From assembly GCA_025829515.1 (NCBI GenBank), contig GCA_025829515.1_4865.2: a stretch of 54,940 bases of DNA; one strand, given 5' to 3'. The first letter of the stretch is position 1; each line of letters starts with the position of its first letter. Position numbers and translations under genes: made by a program. The DNA is from a phage. Shown in pieces: positions 988 through 27,283 of this stretch. The notes beneath the pieces were generated by a model. The model did not search any database. It saw nothing but the letters and a program-made list of their open reading frames with translations, and had not been told where the DNA came from.

Positions 988-3099
988 ATGATACTGCGAA
1001 AAAACGATTGGCGACACTATCCGGGGGCGATTGTTGACGATGTCACACCAAACGTCCACTTCCTTCAATTCGCCACAACACTACAAGGATTAGGTGTCCA
1101 GCATTGGTACGTCCACCTGGCATTACACAATCCCGAACTCCGTGGTGTTGATCCGTTTAGCCCGGATTTAACACTCGAACAAAAAGCGATGATTGTTACG
1201 GAGTGTGCGGAAAACCCATGGTACTTCTTCCGTGAGTGTGTCCGGGTCCCTGCGGATGGTGTAAAGAACGGGATGCCGTTTCGTCTAGACCGCGGTAACT
1301 TTTCGATGTATTGGATTTTCTTCAACAACATCGACGCCGCTATCGAGTTTCTCCGTCAGCATGGTAAGACTGTCGGGATGTCCGCATTGCTATTGTGGCT
1401 GATGCGCTTCCTGGAGAACTCACGTACGATTCTTATCACGAAGGGTCCTGCCCTGCGTGAAGAAACTATCAACAAAATGAAACAACTGCGTAACGCGTTA
1501 CCGGATTATCTCTGGCCTCATCACCCGGACGATCCTGATAACCGTGAGACATTTGCATGTCTAGCGCAGGGTAACAAACTTATCACCGGCATCGGTCAAA
1601 ACGATAAGGAAGCTGCGAACGGGGTAGGCCGTGGACTCACAGCCGGACGCCTGTTCTCGGATGAAGGACCGTTTACCAACAACATCCACCATATCCTCCC
1701 TGCTGCACTAGCATCGGGTACCGCGGCGCGTCGTATTAACGAAGCCGAAGGTGTTCCATACGGCAACGTCTTCGCAACAACGCCTGGGGATTTGGCGACA
1801 GAAGAAGGCGAGTACATGTACAGCCTGATGACGTCGGGGATTTCGTGGGATGAACGGTATATCGACATTCCGACTCGTGCACAACTGATTGACATGATTC
1901 GCAAAGGCTCTACTGCGAAGATTCCACGTATCATGTTCTACGTGAAATACAACCACCGCCAACTCGGTACCACGGACGAAGAACTCGCAGATATGATTGC
2001 GAACGCCCCAGGTACACCAGACCAAATCCGCCGTGACTTCGGTGGTGAATGGACAACCGGTGGTTACAACAAACCGTTCTCAGGCGATGATGCAAGACGT
2101 ATGAACGCCTCGCGTATTCGGGCAGCACAGAAAATTATCTCTGCTTCCAACTACGTAACGGATTGGTATTACACTGAAGAGCAGATGCTGGTTAAAATGC
2201 AAGACCGCCACATCATCGGTTTGGATACTTCCGAAGCCGTGGGGCGGGACGCCATTGCCATGTCAATCGTCAACTCTGTCACTGCCGAATATGCCGGCAA
2301 GCTCACCGTGAACGAAACAAACGTCATCGGGTTTGCGATTCACTTAGCAGACTTCATGATCGAATATCCGAACACGGTACTCATTCTGGAACGACGGTCT
2401 ACCGGCTCCTCGGTAGCAGATGCCATTATACTGCAGCTGCAATCTAAGGTTCGCGATTTGCATCGTCGTTTGTACGTGAAAGTGACCCAGGATTACTCAA
2501 GGAACGATGAACTTTACAAAGAGTTCCATCGTGGCCCTGTGGGCAGTCCAGAGCGCTTCTGGGACAAATTCCGTAAATACATCGGTTTCTCAACCGACCA
2601 GGATAAACGCCGTAAGTTGTATGGTGAAGTATTTACCACGGCGTTGCGTCTTTCTGCGGACTTACTGCGGTCAGGCGAATTGATCGACCAAATCCTCGGT
2701 CTCGTCGAACGAAACGGGCGCATAGACCACCGTGCATCCGGTCACGATGACCTGGTAATATCCTGGCTCCTGGCAATGTGGTTACTTCTGTTCGGCAACA
2801 ACTTAGGCCACTACGGTATAAGTAACAGCCGACTGATGATGCGCAACCGCAATATGCTCGGGGGCATGGCAGGTGAATTCGATGAAGAGGCTGCAGTCGA
2901 GGAAGAAGAAAAGCAACAACAACTGATGGGGCAAATTGAAACGATGATTAGGCAGAGTCAAGTTGTAGCCGACCCGGTACAACAGCTCATGTACAAGAAT
3001 CGTATTCAAGCGCTCGTCTCTCAACTCAACACTGACGTTCGTAACGTCGCATCGATGGAAAGCTTGAAAGAGCTAATCCAACGACAGAGGATGAAGTGA
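988..3099 (+). CDS. putative terminase large subunit (ATPase plus RNase H-like nuclease)
   Basis: 703-aa ORF; terminase-type deviant Walker A (LRQHGKT); C-terminal motifs GLDTSEAVGRD and GHDDLVISWLLA resemble terminase nuclease Asp motifs; ATG preceded by GGAG. Confidence 0.6.
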   Translation: MILRKNDWRHYPGAIVDDVTPNVHFLQFATTLQGLGVQHWYVHLALHNPELRGVDPFSPDLTLEQKAMIVTECAENPWYFFRECVRVPADGVKNGMPFRLDRGNFSMYWIFFNNIDAAIEFLRQHGKTVGMSALLLWLMRFLENSRTILITKGPALREETINKMKQLRNALPDYLWPHHPDDPDNRETFACLAQGNKLITGIGQNDKEAANGVGRGLTAGRLFSDEGPFTNNIHHILPAALASGTAARRINEAEGVPYGNVFATTPGDLATEEGEYMYSLMTSGISWDERYIDIPTRAQLIDMIRKGSTAKIPRIMFYVKYNHRQLGTTDEELADMIANAPGTPDQIRRDFGGEWTTGGYNKPFSGDDARRMNASRIRAAQKIISASNYVTDWYYTEEQMLVKMQDRHIIGLDTSEAVGRDAIAMSIVNSVTAEYAGKLTVNETNVIGFAIHLADFMIEYPNTVLILERRSTGSSVADAIILQLQSKVRDLHRRLYVKVTQDYSRNDELYKEFHRGPVGSPERFWDKFRKYIGFSTDQDKRRKLYGEVFTTALRLSADLLRSGELIDQILGLVERNGRIDHRASGHDDLVISWLLAMWLLLFGNNLGHYGISNSRLMMRNRNMLGGMAGEFDEEAAVEEEEKQQQLMGQIETMIRQSQVVADPVQQLMYKNRIQALVSQLNTDVRNVASMESLKELIQRQRMK

Positions 3100-3410: not shown

Positions 3411-4781
3411 CTGCAAAGAGCGGATCAAGAAGTACAACAGTAACGCATTACGTAAGGCAGCCAGAGCGGCTTCATGACGGATGTGTGTTTCCCGTGCGGC
3501 CAGTTTCTCAATCCGTTCACGCAACGATAACACGTATGGGTTAGGGGACTTCGAAGCCTGGTACAACGAACGCATACGCAGTAGAACCGTACTCGCATCG
3601 TTAAAGTTCAGACGAGAGGTAACAATTTCATCGAACGCGTGCGATAGCGTGTCCTCCATGATAGCGTTAATCTCATCACGCTTTTTGCCAAGCGGTAGAC
3701 TTGCAATATACGCCAGCAAAGTTTTCAGTGCCGCGGGAGATGCTTTGGGTACTAGCTCCAACACCACTTTTGCTAATTGCTCTTTGTAAAGATTGTTGAT
3801 ATCGTAAGACGCATCGAACAGATTCTGCTTAGCGATATCCAGCGCACCCACTTTGTCACGAATAATCGATTCGCCGTCTAACTCTATACGAGTTGACTGC
3901 GTAATCACACGGCTATTATCGCGACGTACTTTGTCCAGTACCGCGTAATAGTCCTTCACGGTTTGTTTGGTACGGGTGTTCAAGTCGGTGATGAAGCGCA
4001 GCACCAAATCCGGCGTATCGAAGCGTTTAACCGCATCGTAGTTTGGGTACTCTGGGGAACAGAAGTATTCTGAACGCTCCTGCATGTGCAAGCCCCAGTT
4101 ACCTAAACGTCGAATATCGAACTTTAACGACAGCATTGAATACGCAGCGTCGGCGGCGGCCATGTCGACCGGCTTGGGGAAGAAGTGGTAATATATACTG
4201 GAGTAGAATTTGAATTGCAGAAGCGTTACTAACGATACAGCCGCGGCGTGGATTTCACGATCGGCGAATTTCGACATCATTCGATGTAGAGTATACACCG
4301 TAGAGAGGTTATACGGATCACCCGCCACTGCCCAGTCGGTGTTAATCGTGCCCGATTCTTTAATCATCTCGAACAGATAGTCTTCGTCGACTTTCAAGAC
4401 ATCTTCAAAAAAGCGGTTACGGTCAGAATCGTAGAAACGAATGGTGTGGACGCCTAATAGATTAGACCCTAGCCACTCCACATTGCCTTCACGTTTAAGG
4501 ATGTTGTCTACGTGAAGTTGAATTTGCTTTGCAAAACGACGATCGATGACGACGTGTTTAAAGCATTCGTCAAACACTTTACGTAATCGGTCATTCTTCA
4601 TGGCTTCTGCAGCAACCACCAGTCCCATCGGGACGTAGCCGCCAAAACCATAGTCGTAATACAAGCCCGTAGAATACGTGTCATCGTCGAAGAATGGGTC
4701 ACGTCCGAATGATTCGACGGCAACCTTCACTCCGGTATCACGATAACAACCGGTACTGAAATCATAAACCAGTTCAGACAT
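3405..4781 (-). CDS. hypothetical protein
   Basis: 458-aa ORF; ATG at 4779-4781 (minus) preceded by AGAGG. Confidence 0.6.
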   Translation of the reverse strand: MSELVYDFSTGCYRDTGVKVAVESFGRDPFFDDDTYSTGLYYDYGFGGYVPMGLVVAAEAMKNDRLRKVFDECFKHVVIDRRFAKQIQLHVDNILKREGNVEWLGSNLLGVHTIRFYDSDRNRFFEDVLKVDEDYLFEMIKESGTINTDWAVAGDPYNLSTVYTLHRMMSKFADREIHAAAVSLVTLLQFKFYSSIYYHFFPKPVDMAAADAAYSMLSLKFDIRRLGNWGLHMQERSEYFCSPEYPNYDAVKRFDTPDLVLRFITDLNTRTKQTVKDYYAVLDKVRRDNSRVITQSTRIELDGESIIRDKVGALDIAKQNLFDASYDINNLYKEQLAKVVLELVPKASPAALKTLLAYIASLPLGKKRDEINAIMEDTLSHAFDEIVTSRLNFNDASTVLLRMRSLYQASKSPNPYVLSLRERIEKLAARETHIRHEAALAALRNALLLYFLIRSLQK

Positions 4782-4853: not shown

Positions 4854-5987
4854 ATGATGAACTTTGAACGTAAGCACGCGTGGCAAGAAAAGCTACGCAC
4901 GGGGCAGATACATTCTGCCCAACAAGTGAAGATGTGGGTGCTGCCGCACGGCGTCATCTGCGAAATGGTCCAGGTCGGGGGATTACCTATTCTTCGAAAT
5001 GGCAAATACGATTCGATGAACACGGTACTCGCGCGCTTGCTGGCCGATGCAGGCATAATGGGTACCGTGATTTTATATTCAACCGCAACGATTCCTCAGA
5101 ACCTTTCTCGCTGGTTAACACATTGGCTTTCCAATGACCCTAGCGAGGACGATCCGTGGCTACGTTCGATGACAGTGACAACAATGGGTCAACGGCCGAC
5201 GAAACCCCTCCCATTCCAGGTCAATGTAATCGAACCAGCTATTCTGGAAGCGGGTGAAGTGTTTGAAGCAATCAAACATCGATCTCGCGATGTTAGCATC
5301 AGTCAGTTTCTTATCGAAGCGAATGATGTGACTTACCGGCTGGAGCCTGTACGACGTATGGACGCTCGTATCGTCGACTGCACAGAGTTCGGTTATGTCT
5401 TGCGTACACAGGGCAACCATACCTTCCTGGCATCGATGCTCTCTCGCCGCGTGCAGGGACAGTTAGCACACTACAAAGTGTCCCCTGCTGACCTCGTCGG
5501 TACCGACGTTAAGGTCGAATACACAATGTTTACCGAAGGGAATCGACTGTGTAATTTTAAGTCTCCGGTAGTCTATCGGAGTAAGGCACTTGATGCCTTA
5601 GGCGACCAGAATGTCCCGACATACGATGGCCCCTATCCGTTTAAATCGCAAGCATCTGCAAACCGTGCGCTCCTTACGGTAACTCGGTGTAAACGCGCAG
5701 CGATCACACGGACCGACGGGGAAATTTATGGTAAGGACACTGAGTCTGACGCAAAACTCTTTTCGTTCCGGCGTGGTGTGAAACCTGGATTGTATGCCGC
5801 GACGTTTGAAAAGGGGGATGACGTCGAGTTCTGGCAGTTCGACAGCGATTTTGCAGTAGATGCGATTGACCCAGATGCGTTAGTGAGTGTCATCACAGAC
5901 CAAATCTTTTACGCGACGGGTATGAGCCTGCTGGAAATCTTTTTAATGTACGATGCCAGATTACCTTCACAGTCAGTCAAAACGTAA
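4854..5987 (+). CDS. hypothetical protein
   Basis: 377-aa ORF; AAGGAG 7 nt upstream of ATG. Confidence 0.6.
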   Translation: MMNFERKHAWQEKLRTGQIHSAQQVKMWVLPHGVICEMVQVGGLPILRNGKYDSMNTVLARLLADAGIMGTVILYSTATIPQNLSRWLTHWLSNDPSEDDPWLRSMTVTTMGQRPTKPLPFQVNVIEPAILEAGEVFEAIKHRSRDVSISQFLIEANDVTYRLEPVRRMDARIVDCTEFGYVLRTQGNHTFLASMLSRRVQGQLAHYKVSPADLVGTDVKVEYTMFTEGNRLCNFKSPVVYRSKALDALGDQNVPTYDGPYPFKSQASANRALLTVTRCKRAAITRTDGEIYGKDTESDAKLFSFRRGVKPGLYAATFEKGDDVEFWQFDSDFAVDAIDPDALVSVITDQIFYATGMSLLEIFLMYDARLPSQSVKT

Positions 5988-6507: not shown

Positions 6508-6514
6508 GTCACTA

Positions 6515-6567
6515 GGCGTACTCTCTTCGGGGAGTACGCCAATCTTATTTTTTTTTATTTTTTTTTT
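6515..6567 (+). terminator. rho-independent terminator
   Basis: Stem ggcgtact/agtacgcc with cUUCGg-type loop followed by a long T-tract. Confidence 0.6.
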
Positions 6568-7164
6568 GGTTACTTTTTAACCAACCGGTTAAAGGGGTCT
6601 GGGAAGCATCAGAAAACGATTAGGTGGTATCGACGTAGGGTAGCTCGTTTTTGGCAGTTTATCGTTTTCTAGGGTCGGTTACGTGCGTTTTAGAGGGGGT
6701 TATGTATCGAGACAGAGAATTTATTTTTGTCGGGGCGAGGAAATTCAGGGAATGGGGATTCAGGATTGTATGTTTTTTAACCAGTTATTAAAAACGCTCT
6801 AGAAAGCGCTAGAACGAGATTTAACTCAGACCCAGTACACTTGGGTTCCCCCTACCGGAAAATCGCGCCAGCGGGCCGTTGAGAGCGCGAGAGTGCCATT
6901 CCCGTTTCGGTTCCGGGACGACGGTCGCGGCCGGCGACGACGATCACACGTTGGGTAGCACTTCGTGCCATGTCTGGGTGAAAACTGGATCGTTCTGTAA
7001 CCGACACACACTGTCGGTTACTTACGAGTTCTTTGGGTTGTTTAACTCGCTCTAAAATCCCCCTTAGGGGATAATTTAATCTAATTCTCAAAATTTCTTT
7101 TTAAAACAATCACTTAGATTGTTTTTTAGATTGATCCTGTGGATCGGGTCGAAGACCCTTTCCT

Positions 7165-7330
7165 TATACGCGTGCGCGTGCGCACACCCGTATCCTCCAG
7201 GATCTTTTAAAATATATAATAATATTAAATATAATAATACCTTTAGGTATTATATTTAATTATTATAATTATTTATATAAATAAATATATTAATATATTA
7301 AGATCTTAAAACGCGTGCGGGCGCGCGCGT
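7165..7330. other. AT-rich imperfect palindrome (~110 bp, >90% AT) flanked by alternating purine-pyrimidine GC tracts; candidate origin or DNA-unwinding element
   Basis: Left tract tatacgcgtgcgcgtgcgcacac (7165-7187) and right tract cgcgtgcgggcgcgcgcgtg (7311-7330) bracket a block centred on the hairpin aataatacc-ttt-aggtattat (7232-7252); GATC-containing repeats flank both sides. Confidence 0.45.
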
Positions 7331-8279
7331 GATCCTTATTAAGAGATCGTGATCGGACGGAAGACCGAGATCGGGTACCCTGTGTATTTTTTACGTGGTT
7401 TCCCTATCGTGTGTTCAGACCACCACTCGATGTCCAAAAACCCATAGCTTCGGTGGTCGCCTCCCTGGTCGGTAGACTCTGACAAGTCGACCCACAACAC
7501 CAACCCGTCCGGGGACGGATTTTTATTCCAACGACAAGCTCCACGAAAATCCCCGCAGAGGGACTCACTGCTGTGTGACTCACCGGCTCCTGGACGCCTA
7601 CGCCTCGAGCCGGTAATTTTTTGATTACGTGAGTTTGTTGTTATATGCGAATAGCGATTGACCGCGCCAATGGTCCAATCACTTTTAAACCCTGCACGCT
7701 AGGGCTCCAAGTCCTGGGACTGATACCCAGGACGCTTTTTCGAAAATACCTACCGTGGTGTCTTCGACAAAGCGCAATCTAACACTGCGTGATTTATTAT
7801 GTTCTGGAAAACTTTCGCCGTGGAACAGAACCGGTGAGCGTCGGCGGGGATTCCGACAATCACCACCCATTCAGGTACTCGGTAAATAACCGACCTGCCG
7901 ACGGTGCTACGTCGGGCGTAGTTCGGTTTGCGAGAGTGTCGAGAAAGTCGACTGCGCACCCATGACAAAATCCGAGTTGACCGTGGCAGCGCCAGAGGAC
8001 TGGGCAGCGGAGAGACGTCGTTGAACTTACCTCCGATAGTTATCGCTGATTCCGCTCTGGCGTCGGGCCAAAACTGATTCGAATTCGGCGTTGCGTCGAA
8101 AAGGGGTCTGCGTGTAGAACCGCAGACTTGGGGGATAACTCCAAAGTGGGGTGATCGGATCTTGACGGCTCGGAATAGACGAGAGGGGTGGGTACTCCCG
8201 TTGAGAAACGACGGTACCTGGCTGATTAAAATTTACAGATTCTGCGTGAGGTATGATAAACCAAACGGAGAATTAAACC

Positions 8280-8855
8280 ATGAACTTGTATCGCATCGGG
8301 TTTTACCGAAACGAGATGCCTGAATCGGTTTTGGTTGTCTTAGCCGAAAACGAGGAGCAGGCCAAATCCTTCTGGCCGGTTAGCGCAGAGCGTCCAGCGG
8401 TTGCGTGCTGCTACGACGGCGCTGTGTCTACCCCGATGGTTACGCCTGGGGTGGTTCTGAAGCAAGGCCGTTGGGATGATTATTCCCATCCCGGTTTGGA
8501 ATTTGTTTCCGAATCCGCCAGACACACCTGGAATCTTACCACGGGTAAAACCAGAGTGTACTTCGGCCACCAAGCCAAGCAACCGTCGCTCATCAAGCTG
8601 TACCTGGTTTACAGCGACGTCGCTACCGAAGACTATGTCGACGCCGGAATCATCGTCGGGGCAACAACCCCCGAGGCGGCATTCGCACATTGGGACGGTG
8701 ATAAACCCGGAATCGTTTCGGTCTGTGAGCTACCACTTGAAGCCGGTTTGGTTACGAACATCAAGTGTGAGCAAGGCCAGGAGCTGACTTGGATGCGCCA
8801 GGATTACCTGACGGAAACGACATTCGAGTACACACCGAGGAAGGTGACCCAATGA
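8280..8855 (+). CDS. hypothetical protein with internal duplication of a ~90-aa domain
   Basis: 191-aa ORF with GGAG RBS; N- and C-terminal halves share an LY...VxA..EEqA pattern, also present in the 9578..9820 product. Confidence 0.5.
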   Translation: MNLYRIGFYRNEMPESVLVVLAENEEQAKSFWPVSAERPAVACCYDGAVSTPMVTPGVVLKQGRWDDYSHPGLEFVSESARHTWNLTTGKTRVYFGHQAKQPSLIKLYLVYSDVATEDYVDAGIIVGATTPEAAFAHWDGDKPGIVSVCELPLEAGLVTNIKCEQGQELTWMRQDYLTETTFEYTPRKVTQ

Positions 8856-9577: not shown

Positions 9578-9820
9578 ATGAACTTGTATTTGCTAGAACG
9601 AACTGACGATATCGGGTATGATGAATTTGATTCCATAATCGTGGCGGCTCCTACGGAGCAAGCTGCGTGTGCAATTCCTCCCGACTGTGGCCATTGGATG
9701 GACTGCCGCTGGTTACCGAAAGAGCGCTGGGATGAAGGGCTTACCCTGACCGTTACTCTTATCGGTACTACGCACTATCCTGCTGGGACCGTCGTTCATG
9801 AATCGTTCAATGCTGGCTAA
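9578..9820 (+). CDS. hypothetical small protein, paralog of the 8280..8855 repeat domain
   Basis: 80-aa ORF starting MNLY like 8280..8855; GGAG RBS; followed by hairpin 9823-9840. Confidence 0.45.
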   Translation: MNLYLLERTDDIGYDEFDSIIVAAPTEQAACAIPPDCGHWMDCRWLPKERWDEGLTLTVTLIGTTHYPAGTVVHESFNAG

Positions 9821-10865
9821 ACAGTGGGCTTCGGCCCACTAACCCTATTCGAGCCGTGATACTTACTCAGATTGTGCGGGTTGATGTCCCGCATGAGCCG
9901 GTAGCAGCTCAGACCTACGGTAGACCAATAAATCCGTAGCAGCCAGGTACACAAAGTACCAGGTCGCTTGTACAGGATGCTGGGTATCTGACCGGTCATA
10001 ACCTCATTCGATACGAGACACGTTTATGCATGAAATACTCCAGTACATCAGGATGTTGATTTCCAACGTCCGGTTCTGGGTATTCAATCATGTTTGGTTT
10101 ACAGGCGATGGGTTTTCCCGCAAGGGCCCCACTTACAGACTGGCGTCTCCACGACAACCGTCCCTAGGGGACAGGCAAGCACCGGCCCATTAAGCCGCTA
10201 CGCTACGCCTGTAAATCCACAATCTGATAACCGAATGGGATTGAGTTCCCAGTGTTAGGGTGACTGTGTGTCACCGTAGGCGCGGTACCTCATACGGCCG
10301 GTACGCCACGAATGTACGTGATAGCGGGTGGTGCTTGGAGACGCTAAGACCTGACCTTGCGGCCAGGCTCAGAAGAAGAAGTCCATCACCCGCATTCAGA
10401 AATGAATTTAGGTTAATTATTATTTATGGAAGTGATGAAATCGTTTACGTGATAACTTAGTAGTATGCAACGAACAATACCAGAGTGACTTTACGAGGTT
10501 ACTGTGGTATATGTCGGTGCGCCGGGCAACGTGTTGCCGCAGATAAGCCCGAGGGAGCTGAGTGCACTAACACACGCCGGGATGCATCGGCACCTTACAA
10601 TGGGAGCGCTGTCACCATCAGTGATGACAGGAGTGAAGGATTCGTACCTCACTCGACTGGGCGGAAGCCTGGGCGTTCCCCCATCTTCACATCATGGCCG
10701 GCTTGCCGGTTCAACGTAGACGTCTCGTAAGAGATTTCCAGTCAGGCAACTGATAACACACCTAAGCGTCGACCTTGGACGTATGGTGTCTGGTTAAGTC
10801 CCCCGAAACGGAAACCAGTAGGGGTGTGGTACGTTGAGTGTAACTATCATGATGCCATGAACAAT

Positions 10866-10935
10866 GGCTTTGTAGCTCAGGTAGGTAGAGCAACCTCTTC
10901 GAGGAAGGTCGCCGGTTCGAGTCCGGTCAAAGCAA
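10866..10935 (+). tRNA. tRNA-like element with canonical acceptor, D and T arms but a truncated anticodon arm (possible pseudo-tRNA)
   Basis: tagctcaggtaggtagagc D-arm and gccggttcgagtccggt T-arm are tRNA-typical, but only 14 nt (aacctcttcgagga) lie where an 18-nt anticodon arm should be; G1-A72 mismatch. Confidence 0.4.
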
Positions 10936-11009
10936 GAGCAGCGAAGTTAGAGGAATTAACACCCGACTCATAATCGGATATTTCGACGGTTCGAATCCGT
11001 CCGTTTGCT
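10936..11009 (+). tRNA. tRNA-like element, possible tRNA-Met/Ile2 (anticodon CAU), non-canonical D and acceptor arms
   Basis: T-arm gacgg-ttcgaat-ccgtc and anticodon arm cccga-ctCATaa-tcgga are recognisable; acceptor pairing imperfect and the 5' boundary is uncertain. Confidence 0.35.
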
Positions 11010-11390
11010 CGCCCCATTTGTGTTATCCTTATCCCGAAGGCATTCGAAATAAGACGCGTATCCACACACGGGTCAAGGGTAACACGAACCACTTCCGCGG
11101 TCACCGTGTCCATTGCCGCCTACCTGCATGGGCTGTCCTCCGACACGGTGACTTCGGGCCAACTTACAGGCCAGGGCCGTTTGGGTTTTTCTTACGCATC
11201 CATCCAGAGCCACCTCGCGCCCTAGTCTGTATACCCCTTTTCTGTTCCTGGTTTGCCAACTAAATCAATTAAGCCTGGTGCGTTGCCCTGGGAACAGAAA
11301 AACTTATTCGGTTACACACCGAACCCACCCACGAGGGATATGTCGTGGACTACCAATAGAAGCAGCAATAGTAGTAAGAAGGAAAGCAAC

Positions 11391-12364: not shown

Positions 12365-12380
12365 AGATAGATATTACCTA
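12365..12380 (+). promoter_or_regulatory. palindromic motif site A (agatagatattaccta, one mismatch to AGATAtTATCT core)
   Basis: Seven-member motif family; this copy is ~60 nt upstream of the 12439 start. Confidence 0.45.
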
Positions 12381-25331: not shown

Positions 25332-27283
25332 GTGAGAAAGGTACCAAAATTCTACGGAATATCCGGCCGGTTGGTTAGTCAGGATAACTATTTGTCCGAT
25401 TTGCAAATAGAAGCTGCAGCCAAAGGTATTAAACCACCCACTATTATTAACGATGTCGCCGTTAACGGGGATGCTATCGAGGTTGCTGAACTTATCGATC
25501 GCATGGTACAGAACAGAATCGTTGACGAAGAACTGAACTCTGCACCGATTTGTAGTTTGGATTGTCCGGCACCGATCGCGCATCGTTACAATCTCGGTTG
25601 TAAGTGTCCGACGTGTGGCTATGTTGTAACTGAACATCGAATTGAATCCGATGTCTGGTTACGTGCACCCGATGAAATGGGTAACTTCGTCAACCCACGA
25701 TTCTGGGCAATGTTCAATGCTTTCTTTAATAGCAAGTTGAAGAAGTTTGAACGTAACAAGGTCACTATCGAACGCGGTAATGACTTGATGATGTGGATGA
25801 TTGACCCGTATTACCGTATAGAAGAACCAGACGGTAAACGCGCACATGCTGTGAAACGTGTATTGGAAGAACATGGTTTCGTTCGTGGCTTGCGCAATCT
25901 GGTTGATAACCACGTTAGTATCTTTAACATCCTTACCACGCCAGAAGCCTGGAAGGAAATCTTCGCACCTAATCGGCATAACGCCGCTGAAGGTGAACGC
26001 TTACGTTTACAATGGAAGGAGCTATTCGAAACGCAACGTCACGCATTCTTCCCAAGACACTTACCGCTAATCTCCTCTAAACTTATCGTTACTGAGGAAG
26101 GTCGTCGTGGTGTCATGGTAGACCCAGTGTTCACGGGTGCTATTGATGCGGTGAAAAATATCGCGTTGCTCTATACGCGGCGTAAAGCGATCGAACCACG
26201 TTTTCTGATTAGTCGTGCTTTGAAGGCGAACCGTCAGCTAACGTACTTCCACATGGACTTCCGTCGTGAGTCTATGGAAGGTAAACCGGGTGACTATCGT
26301 GCGAAATTGGGTTCTACCCATATCCCGTTCGGTGGTCGTGCAACCATCTCACCTATCTCAGAACCACATGATGCCTGGAAGTTAAAAGCACCATGGCGTT
26401 GGATGGTTGGGTTGATGTCGACCCACATCGAGAACAAACTGCTACGACGCGGTTATTCGTCACGGCAGTGTGAACGTATCGTTGCGAAAGCGGCAATGCA
26501 GTATGACCCGCTTGTAGATGAAATCTTTAAAGAACTGATTCGTGAATCCCCAGGCGGTCTTGGGATCATGGTCATACCGTTACGTAACCCAACGCTGGTA
26601 CAGTTGTCTATTCAAACGCTGTACATCGATGAAGTTGTTACCGATGTTAACCAGTGTTCGCTGCGTATCTCTGACCGTGTGATCAAGATGGCTAACGGTT
26701 CGAAAAGAGCCCCATCGGACGGGAAACCTCTGATGCGTATTCTCCTGAAATGCTGGGAAACCCTAAAGCGTATCTACCAGAAATGGGGACGAAAGTCTGA
26801 AACAACAGATACGATGACCTACGCTAAACAATACTGCTAACGGTTGTGATAATGGGTAATCAGCAGCGAAGCCTCGTGAGAGGAACGTTCAACGACTATC
26901 GCTGAAATGCGAGTAGGGGTCCCAGTGGACTTCGAAGTGGGAGAACACCTAAGGCGATAGCTATGGTGAAGATATAGTCTGTGCCTTATCGAGAGATAAG
27001 GAGGGTGTCTTAGCACACCTGCTGTATACGGAAACGGTATACGGTGGACAAACAGGATTTCGATGGCGACCAGTTCCAGGTACGTTTGCCAGTCGATGAA
27101 ACTGAGATGAAGTTGGCGCTCCAATTCCGTCCAGATAACGGCTTTATGTCTTCTACTGATGTGGACCGCGTAGAACACGGCATGGTTTTACATAACGAGC
27201 TAATCAGTATGCAGAACCAGTTCCTTATTGAAGCAGATGAGGATGATGAAGAAGGCATTCCGTTGGAAGCGGTGATGGGCTAA
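25332..27283 (+). CDS. multisubunit RNA polymerase beta'-like N-terminal fragment, interrupted by a group I intron (exon 1 ~25332..26662, exon 2 ~27037..27283)
   Basis: Exon 1 has a beta'-type zinc ribbon (CSLDCPAPIAHRYNLGCKCPTCG), FRRESMEGK...GGRATISPISEP and IPLRNPTLVQLSIQ (cf. E. coli NRAPTLHRLGIQ); downstream frame encodes DFDGDQFQVRLPVDETEMKLALQF (cf. [26 protein letters not shown]); the two parts are in different frames ~370 nt apart and the second has no RBS. Confidence 0.65.
26663..27036 (+). ncRNA. putative ORF-less group I intron (boundaries +/- ~10 nt)
   Basis: Core elements in canonical order: P-like ggacgggaaa (26717-26727), Q-like aatcagcagcgaagcc (26858-26873), R-like gttcaacgactat (26887-26899), and aagatatagtc (26969-26979) identical to the Tetrahymena intron S element; gactat and atagtc can form P7; a U-ended exon 1 and G-ended intron restore the frame. 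Confidence 0.55.

Follow-up and report, generated by a model that had tools for sequence, protein, structure and literature searches.

Escherichia coli oriC and P1 oriR join an AT-rich unwinding region of low stability to a local concentration of GATC sites, which go with a Dam-family methylase, and to DnaA boxes or iterons; at oriC, the gidA promoter, which reads away from the origin, supplies negative supercoiling. At the T4 origins oriF(uvsY) and oriG(34) and at the primary origin of T7, a promoter lies upstream of an AT-rich element and reads into it. The P1 pac site places 4+3 TGATCA/G hexamers around the position at which DNA is cut, and ColE1 uses RNA II, a structured primer RNA of ~550 nt. 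We describe here a locus to be set beside these systems, positions 6508-8279 of a phage contig of 54,940 nucleotides (NCBI GenBank assembly GCA_025829515.1, contig GCA_025829515.1_4865.2; this whole stretch is called the window below, and coordinates are its own unless stated otherwise). It is the largest gene-free stretch of an SPN3US-type (Seoulvirus) nucleus-forming Salmonella jumbo phage and has at its centre an AT-rich core (7165-7348). On comparative sequence evidence, it is a genuine, ancient and conserved multi-part non-coding locus with two layers, a set of RNA genes and a core that probably acts as DNA; among possible replication origins of nucleus-forming phages, this core is the strongest candidate to date.

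What sets the core apart is its AT block, which the preliminary description of this DNA had given as ~110 bp of more than 90% AT with a central hairpin and which agrees in all three respects with the element delimited in Table 1. Genome-wide statistics (duplex stability, AT tracts, copy number of boxes, alternating runs and promoters) were computed on a complete 239-kb relative, Salmonella phage SPLA5c, which is 98% identical to our phage over ~2 kb around the region. The block is the sole tract of more than 100 bp and at least 85% AT in that genome; in the 54.9-kb window it is one of three tracts of at least 87% AT, the others being an overlapping tract of the same block and the T-run of a terminator, and a GC value of 0.27-0.29 is also listed among the evidence for it. 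It is the least stable 100-bp duplex of the 239 kb, at -88 kcal/mol against a mean of -140 (standard deviation 6), thus 8.5 standard deviations off, and the next-lowest stabilities, about -111 kcal/mol, fall at early promoters. Across lineages its sequence drifts while its composition is held at 84-96% A+T, and it measures 95-107 nt in three genera, shrinks to 64-66 nt in Wellingtonvirus and reaches ~190 nt in a phage recorded as an E. coli 'plasmid'. The block has many TA steps and shows neither helical phasing of A-tracts nor A-tract bending, and curved-DNA phasing is thus ruled out as one of its features.

In the block of our phage, the only G/C bases are those of the central mini-hairpin and of a GATC at 7302-7305. 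The mini-hairpin is nested in a larger imperfect palindrome (7210-7274), and the single strand from 7160 to 7345 folds far better than its shuffles (z = -4.9). Other lineages likewise spend almost all of the block's few G/C bases on small GC-centred hairpins (ATATCCCGTAGGGATAT, AATATCTTTAGATATT, AAACCCTACGGGTTT and ACTACTACGTAGTAGT in relatives), with a second one, CTC-TTC-GAG or CTC-TAC-GAG, in two of the sequences (L008 and L026). Seoulvirus and Erskinevirus carry YC-TTTA-GR hairpins in direct orientation, and Wellingtonvirus has no mini-hairpins. In Machinavirus (L005, L034 and L039), the two mini-hairpins, CCCGTAGGG and CCCTACGGG, are reverse complements of each other, so that the same hairpin, with a G-N-A triloop, would be offered on each DNA strand. 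A long-range cruciform that pairs both GC tracts folds well in the window, but was set aside since its inner arms are not conserved in the other genera.

The block is bounded on both sides by GC-rich palindromic tracts and by two boxes of invariant sequence. The preliminary description had bracketed it by alternating purine-pyrimidine tracts of 20-23 nt; this holds for the left tract, which is the longest alternating run of the whole SPLA5c genome, and not strictly for the right one, where the alternation is broken at GGG. By the criterion of a long GC-rich alternating run, the left tract would be prone to form Z-DNA. Each lineage keeps an alternating, palindromic left tract of differing sequence (CGCGTACGTACGCG, GCGCGTACGCGC, CGCGTGCACGCG and CGTGCGCGCACG), and a palindromic GC tract is also kept on the right side in other genera; in the window, the right tract is a direct repeat of the left one (D2), and its hairpin was picked up in the terminator scan. 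Box L and Box R, on the other hand, are conserved as sequence and not as pairing. In 11-13 sequences from four genera, the columns T(C/A)CAGGATCTTTT of Box L do not vary, and the consensus of this box across genera is TCCT(C/A)CAGGATCTTTTAA; Box R, with the consensus CGTGATCCTTATTA(A/C)GAGAT, is conserved in alignment A8 and degenerate in the lineage of pEa4, ChrisDB and Caitlin, and a search of IMG/VR with its exact pattern GCGTGATCCTTATTAMGAG returned relatives only. The boxes are unlike each other, each occurs once in the 239-kb genome, and both are presumably sites at which protein binds.

GATC sites crowd around the same element. The 300 bp of 7131-7430 hold eight, where the background density is 2.1 per kb, and form the densest cluster both in the window and in SPLA5c, in a genome that is otherwise depleted of GATC (0.53 of expectation). 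Their contexts are mixed (TGATCC, GGATCG, AGATCT), three of the eight being TGATC(C/G), and the GATC-containing repeats that had been noted around the block are indeed there as direct repeats, GATCGGGTCGAAGACC and GATCGGACGGAAGACC, one on each side. These sites could be marked by a methyltransferase of the Dam family for which the phage has a gene (Pfam PF02086; TIGR00571 at 241 bits against a cut-off of 115). As the enzyme is retained in all four genera and present in all lineages, a correlation between its presence and GATC richness is uninformative. Taken together, the single copy, the extreme meltability, a composition kept without conservation of sequence, the sequence-specific boundaries, the GC clamps and the methylation sites lead us to infer that the core is a DNA element acting in cis whose job is being opened.

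Table 1. Features of the locus at 6508-8279, in window coordinates
Feature	Position	Strand	Description
Terminator of the upstream 184-aa gene	6515-6571	+	Intrinsic; 11-bp GC-rich hairpin (6515-6540) and long T-run
Unit of ~200 nt	6572-6771	+	Seoulvirus only; starts with ACTTTTTAACCA; partial duplicate of the next segment
Left conserved segment	6772-7164	+	Candidate structured RNA; 13-sequence alignment A5
Conserved box	7094-7116	+	TTTCTTTTTAAAACA-N3-ACTTA; ~90 nt left of the AT block; nearly invariant in A5
GATC cluster	7131-7372		Eight sites (7133, 7142, 7201, 7302, 7331, 7345, 7351, 7369) on both flanks of the AT block
Left GC tract	7165-7187		23 nt, perfect purine-pyrimidine alternation; contains palindrome GTGCGCAC
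Box L	7190-7210		GTATCCTCCAGGATCTTTTAA; invariant left boundary of the AT block; contains GATC
AT block	7205-7311		107 nt, 94% A+T, 31 TA steps; proposed DNA-unwinding element
Central mini-hairpin	7234-7253		ATAATACC-TTTA-GGTATTAT; from sequence, inverted repeats I2 and I5 and the fold of single-stranded DNA
Right GC tract	7311-7331		ACGCGTGCGGGCGCGCGCGTG; 21 nt, interrupted alternation (runs of 9 and 12); possible 8-bp hairpin
Box R	7328-7348		CGTGATCCTTATTAAGAGATC; invariant right boundary; contains two GATC
Promoter P_R	7387-7413	+	TTTTTTAC-N15-TGTG; predicted start near 7413, directed away from the AT block
Predicted small RNA A	7413-7524	+	Ends at hairpin 7505-7518 and T-run; conserved in Seoulvirus; ends inferred
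Segment B	7525-7622	+	Ends at long hairpin CCGGCTC...GAGCCGG (7583-7613) and TTTTTT
Promoter P_C	7617-7647	+	TTTTTTGATTAC-N15-TATG; class assigned by eye, fails the strict pattern
Predicted small RNA C	7647-7739	+	GCGAATAGC...; ends at hairpin 7711-7733 and T-run
RNA-D	7740-8228	+	Conserved structured RNA candidate of ~490 nt; ends just before the promoter of the next gene
Promoter of the downstream gene	8228-8279	+	AAAATTTAC-N15-TATG at 8232-8255 (relaxed match); predicted start near 8255

That the region holds no protein-coding gene, as had been proposed from the letters alone, is borne out. The longest open reading frame (ORF) on either strand has 79 aa (6852-7091, minus strand), and mismatches to the related phage SPAsTU number 96/94/81 by codon phase, against 57/48/173 in the neighbouring gene; the flanking coding sequences thus show the 3-nt periodicity of substitutions that the region does not have, and a hidden gene is ruled out by the ORF list and the missing codon-phase bias. 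In close relatives the syntenic stretch is unannotated; where some relatives do carry short ORF calls, these are not conserved, and related genomes therefore do not show ordinary genes here. The claim of a coding density above 90% elsewhere is roughly right, although a second ORF-poor stretch lies at ~9820-11250.

The ~2-kb stretch is matched by 63 phage records, chiefly SPN3US-like Salmonella phages (Seoulvirus) and Erwinia jumbo phages. A gene-poor ~1.7 kb occupies the same place in SPAsTU and in Erwinia phage pEa_SNUABM_29 (pEa29), and the syntenic non-coding locus is also found in phiEaH2 (Erskinevirus), in Huxley and pEa_SNUABM_4 (Machinavirus), in Kwan (Wellingtonvirus) and in IMG/VR and metagenome contigs. 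With Seoulvirus itself, four genera thus hold the locus, and a fifth lineage is the E. coli 'plasmid' mentioned above: NZ_CP173450.1, a circular 221,873-bp RefSeq record of a clinical isolate, which carries at 149300-155244 the gene for a ligase-fold protein, the left RNA hairpins, Box R, RNA-D and the AT block grown to ~190 nt, and which is evidently the genome of a jumbo phage from another lineage. Across these five, conservation of the region nearly equals that of the neighbouring genes (the right half is 71% identical to SPAsTU, the adjacent gene for a 377-aa protein 75%), and the right half, 7330-8279, is alignable across all genera, which keep it next to proteins that are only ~50-60% identical. 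Derbicusvirus has a much shorter syntenic gap of ~550 bp (Cronobacter phage CR5, 1943-2490; Erwinia phage Derbicus, 1950-2480), in which no Box L, Box R or RNA-D was found. A tract of ~115 bp in this gap is rich in purines and in AT and repeats words like GGAT(A/G)A; hairpins and a promoter of the early type come after it, and it may be the analogue of the AT block.

On both sides of the core, the locus is punctuated by putative promoters and terminators. The octamer TTTTTTAC occurs 14 times in SPLA5c, mostly between genes and upstream of plus-strand genes, and defines a promoter class, TTTTTTAC-N15-T(A/G)TG. Searched as T5-6 A1-2 C, N13-17, T(A/G)TG, the class has 10 matches where Markov simulations lead one to expect 1.85 +/- 1.1, a roughly five-fold enrichment, and the matches are correctly oriented upstream of genes, including before two genes on the minus strand. 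Middle and late promoters of phiKZ have a TAC element near -22 and T(-3)ATG(+1) (PMC7598289, PMC8244752). The motif here is like them in that it unites both elements and sits upstream of replication-type genes, and differs in that it was derived from sequence enrichment alone. Within the 55-kb window, P_R alone fits the strict pattern, and all genera keep it at the same position, a fixed short distance from Box R; it would lead into two or three short RNAs. At P_C, SPAsTU and pEa29 have an equivalent with an unbroken T-run, then AC-N15-TATG. The downstream gene has a 25-nt leader with GGAG and its ATG at 8280, and relatives keep the arrangement of its promoter, with the full TTTTTTAC. The boxes ACTTTTTAACCA and TTTTTAAAACA were not supported as strict members of the class, those on the left at 6574, 6774 and 7094 having no T(A/G)TG element.

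A second, strongly conserved motif, AGATA(T/G)ATATTA(C/T)(C/T)TA(G)GTGAG, lies upstream of plus-strand genes, in the window at 12365, 23242, 31810 and 36969 (+) and in SPLA5c in nine plus-strand copies (16498, 69913, 78416, 86291, 107832, 127238, 175721, 193570 and 233132). Its part AGATA(T/G)ATATTA(C/T)(C/T)TA is probably the early promoter of the clade, used by the virion RNA polymerase and comparable to the AT-rich early motif of phiKZ. With nine copies elsewhere and none in the region, the motif gives no ground for seeing a cluster of early promoters in the AT block, and this idea was rejected. As for transcript ends, the further hairpins reported earlier correspond to 10 terminator-like sites where 3.5 are expected: a hairpin with T-run stands at the position of the upstream terminator in all relatives, and predicted terminators at 7505, 7583 and 7711 accompany the motif-level promoters at 7387 and 7617.

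Comparison of the relatives shows that both halves carry structured RNAs that would be read from the plus strand, the strongest case being RNA-D. Its 3' module, aligned over 15 non-redundant sequences (A4), has 33 RNAalifold pairs, ten of them with compensatory double changes, and the terminal helix (8189-8219) is changed on both sides in up to eight of the 15 sequences. In this module, pairing extends to 96.1% of cells, whereas column shuffles give 86.9% and none of 500 attains the observed value; the covariation score is 0.383 against 0.220 in shuffles, and the share of paired cells falls to 40-55% in a control in which partners are slid by 1-3 columns. About one fifth of the paired cells are G-U, which places the structure on the plus strand because these pairs would be A-C mismatches on the other. 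An invariant core, GGCTCGGAA(T)AGACGAGAGGGG, lies at 8167-8188, no promoter motif turned up immediately ahead of RNA-D, and the RNA is set apart from the downstream mRNA because the downstream gene has its own promoter. The option of a structured non-coding RNA, which the preliminary description had left beside that of a cis-acting site, is thus directly supported by plus-strand covariation and by the conserved punctuation with predicted promoters and terminators.

Left of the core, every genus keeps ~400-470 nt between the ACTTTTTAACCA box and the AT block. The segment in between forms hairpins at 6830-6846 (ACCCAGTACACTTGGGT), 6958-6968, 6997-7021, 7057-7072 and 7146-7158, and its RNAalifold pairs show compensatory changes, such as GTAACCGACA/TGTCGGTTAC against GTATCCGACA/TGTCGGATAC, as well as G-U pairs. 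The ACTTTTTAACCA box stands at both 6572 and 6772 here and occurs once or clustered in other genera; internal repeats (D10, D15) connect 6633-6687 with 6948-7026, and the ~200-nt unit is kept in SPAsTU and pEa29. The conserved box at 7094-7116, with one good match only in the 239-kb genome, is a possible promoter or protein site. Right of the core, segment B keeps its stem ends, CCGG(C/C)/GGCCGG, around a variable interior, and small RNA C has a block, TATGCGAATAGC, and a hairpin with CTTTTTCGA that are conserved across genera. At gathering thresholds Rfam has no match in 6508-8279 (best sub-threshold E 0.9-9.6), and ARAGORN finds nothing in the region. The RNAs here are structured and phage-encoded, as are many phage small RNAs, and RNA-D differs from the typical ones in being far larger. 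The core of RNA-D has chance matches only in representative bacterial genomes, and two metagenome matches to the RNA (L030, L038) were spurious.

The best available explanation of the core, to which we give a little less than an even chance, is that it is a replication origin with a DNA-unwinding element. A phage protein would bind Box L and/or Box R and help to open the AT block, aided by the negative supercoiling behind an RNA polymerase that leaves P_R, and transcripts arriving from the left would possibly contribute. GC-centred mini-hairpins could then form on the exposed single strands, possibly as signals for loading or priming, the GC-rich palindromes would act as clamps that bound the melted block, and the methylation state of the GATC sites could time re-use of the site. 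The features by which an origin is judged are present in minimal helical stability, at a unique AT tract, and in clustered GATC sites with a cognate Dam, with one lineage having only 2-3 such sites. The earlier suggestion of an origin or other cis-acting site is thus upheld in that the core fits all computed features, and qualified by the missing iterons and DnaA boxes; overall, that interpretation is partly supported.

Several observations weigh against an origin. There are no iterons or repeated initiator sites, and no repeat family beyond the GATC-containing 16-mers; no DnaA box was found within one mismatch in 6508-8279. No initiator is recognisable: neighbouring proteins were considered as initiator or small terminase and dismissed, having no sequence matches in Pfam, NCBIfam or PDB, with the 377-aa protein taking up a ligase fold and the model of a 169-aa neighbour being poor (predicted local distance difference test, pLDDT, 52). 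The strict promoter P_R points away from the block, unlike promoters at T4 and T7 origins, and genes have the same orientation on both sides, with GC skew only following transcription; over the whole genome, skew tracks the plus-strand gene bias and was discarded as an origin indicator. Nor are all features universal: in Wellingtonvirus the block measures 65 nt and is free of mini-hairpins, Box R and most GATC sites are gone from the pEa4/ChrisDB lineage, and Box L is absent from the E. coli 'plasmid' phage. By analogy, recombination-dependent replication of the T4 kind may also make a fixed origin dispensable.

The structured plus-strand RNAs on both sides of the block invite an explanation in which the locus is purely one of RNA and transcription, with no part in replication or packaging. 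The block and its GC hairpins would then belong to the non-coding RNA genes or be spacer and regulatory DNA between them: they could assist P_R from upstream, as an activating sequence or by melting easily, mark where a long precursor is processed, or insulate transcription. The fixed short distance between P_R and Box R in all genera would suit this, as would a hairpin with T-run at 7351-7393, right of Box R, which could stop transcripts that cross the block, and the fact that the other low-stability spots of the genome are promoters. However, ~10 other promoters of the same class and nine early promoters do without a 100-bp AT block, GC palindromes or a GATC cluster; the Machinavirus pair CCCGTAGGG and CCCTACGGG gives one hairpin per DNA strand, which a single transcript could not use; and the two boxes keep their sequence and not a pairing. 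We thus regard a purely transcriptional locus as possible, on the unlikely side. A more elaborate scheme, built on analogy, would give the RNAs a part in an origin of the nucleus-forming (chimalli-type) clade: the left RNA of ~430 nt would anchor on the GC palindrome and prime synthesis in the Dam-marked block, much as RNA II does in ColE1, the strand-symmetric mini-hairpins would recruit the helicase or primase of the phage on each strand, and RNA-D, as the first of a new class of large phage RNAs, would regulate the process or serve as its scaffold inside the phage nucleus. This combination is decidedly speculative, and we consider it a long shot.

An unlikely reading, also of the core as DNA, is that of a pac site of the P1 type, at which terminase would recognise GATC elements flanking the cleavage region and Dam methylation would license cutting and so restrict packaging to fully methylated concatemers, the RNAs being unrelated. 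The core is single-copy, GATC clusters stand on both flanks in a phage with its own Dam methylase, the large-terminase gene is 3.4 kb upstream (988-3099), and many GenBank records open inside the block (~7097, ~7233 and ~7296). These record starts were rejected as evidence of DNA ends, reflecting convention or assembly breaks: base pair 1 of the Erwinia records was set by alignment to the phage family and is not a physical end (PMC6256631), further near-identical phages have assemblies that begin at unrelated positions, and AT-rich palindromes, we infer, break short-read assemblies. Packaging in the Erwinia phages has been called headful by homology to the phiKZ terminase (PMC6256631). Moreover, the GATC contexts do not form a single hexamer family, one lineage has few sites, the spacing from flank to flank ranges from 64 to 190 nt, and no small terminase is known or adjacent, the neighbours being the ligase-fold protein and proteins of unknown function. 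Nor is the region likely to be a remnant of genes, tRNAs or mobile elements without present function. Insertions specific to single lineages (ORFs in SPAsTU, pEa29, Huxley and phiEaH2, an HNH gene in Kwan) and a nearby stretch with degenerate tRNA-like matches would fit decay, but neutral DNA is expected to be unalignable at such a distance, and a region that is conserved beside proteins of ~50-60% identity, with compensatory changes in its stems and with invariant boxes, makes decay highly improbable.

The region follows two conserved genes, for proteins of 377 and 184 aa. The product of the first (4854-5987, +; phrog_8136), a conserved protein of unknown function, yields a confident model of pLDDT 84.7, whose best PDB matches are all ATP-dependent DNA ligases, those of Chlorella virus, T4, T7 and African swine fever virus (E 1e-6 to 1e-4). 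A KxDG adenylation motif was not seen by eye in this protein, which may have diverged from the ligases it resembles or be inactive; as a structural prediction, a neighbour of ligase fold would lend mild support to a replication neighbourhood. The lineage-specific ORFs at the locus lie upstream in SPAsTU, pEa29, Huxley and phiEaH2, and the HNH endonuclease gene of Kwan (3903-4412) splits the RNA-D homologue between its central part and the invariant 3' module, a point at which Wellington-like metagenome contigs without the insertion are contiguous. Elsewhere in the window, a group I intron at 26680-27001 (+) matches Rfam RF00028 over its full length with 69.4 bits. The gene that it interrupts is probably one for a subunit of the phage RNA polymerase, since in SPLA5c each of the two flanking pieces has its own annotation as an 'RNA polymerase beta subunit' gene. 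The ORF-poor stretch at ~9820-11250 has two weak matches to the Rfam tRNA model, one of 40.9 bits at 10866-10935 and one of 30.6 bits at 10938-11009, neither of them called by ARAGORN, which may be tRNA genes that are unusual or in decay; at the syntenic place SPAsTU has tRNA-Tyr, Glu, Asp, Ile and Gln.

We found no published description of the locus. Literature searches for an SPN3US origin, transcriptome or termini gave nothing relevant, and no paper in the searched literature pairs SPN3US with 'origin of replication'. The locus is easily overlooked because phage records open inside the core and split it over their ends: that of SPN3US at ~7097, those of Proteus phage 7 and SPFM2 at ~7233, and those of SEGD1, EC001, JN03, Lh1B and SPFM17 at ~7296, all near-identical phages, in what looks like a mixture of convention and assembly breaks at the AT-rich palindrome. 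Matches to the LR5359xx records (Salmonella phages SPFM1, 5-10, 12, 14, 15 and 20) are split into 18-31 short pieces, and the neighbouring gene is matched in fragments only, which suggests sequence-quality problems at one end of these assemblies.

The SPN3US-like Salmonella phages and their Erwinia relatives are related to phiKZ and have multisubunit RNA polymerases, and Asesino, a member of the sister genus, forms a phage nucleus (PMC11724907). Such nucleus-forming phages are the subject of intensive study. Reviews of 2025-2026 on jumbo and nucleus-forming phages name no origin, no pac site and almost no non-coding RNAs, with only a passing note on those of phiKZ. The locus now provides a precise and testable candidate for the start of replication (or packaging) in SPN3US, the genetic model for enterobacterial jumbo phages. 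In addition, it brings to light several conserved structured RNAs without a match among curated families, one of them ~490 nt long, and the group gains working consensus sequences for early and middle-type promoters. If the core were indeed an origin, it would open the way to phage-dependent replicons, to landing sites for engineering and to the study of replication licensing in a protein-bounded compartment. If it were a pac site, on the other hand, it would overturn the sequence-independent headful packaging that is assumed for phiKZ-like phages.

Set against the systems named at the outset, the locus resembles each in part. With ColE1 it shares the succession of a structured plus-strand segment of fixed length (~400-470 nt), a GC tract and an AT element; it differs in that no equivalent of the antisense RNA I is seen here and in that the left RNA is a candidate known from sequence alone. 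With P1 pac it shares GATC clusters flanking a centre of ~100 bp, a Dam methylase of its own and headful packaging, but it has no uniform TGATCA/G hexamer, its spacing is variable and it lies neither in nor next to a small-terminase gene. As at the T4 and T7 origins, a promoter class of a phage RNA polymerase adjoins an AT-rich element, and the genome, like that of T4, has recombination genes (UvsX, SbcCD-like and RuvC-like); P_R, however, lies downstream and points away, where the T4 and T7 promoters lie upstream and read into the element, and the AT block here has double the length, with conserved boxes and GC palindromes on either side. The likeness to oriC and P1 oriR consists in the AT-rich unwinding region of low stability and the local concentration of GATC sites with a Dam-family methylase, and that to oriC also in a flanking promoter directed away from the element, as is gidA. 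In place of their DnaA boxes or iterons, which the core does not have, conserved boxes stand on both sides of the AT block and GC palindromes bound it, and the element would have to act inside the protein-walled phage nucleus, presumably with factors of the phage.

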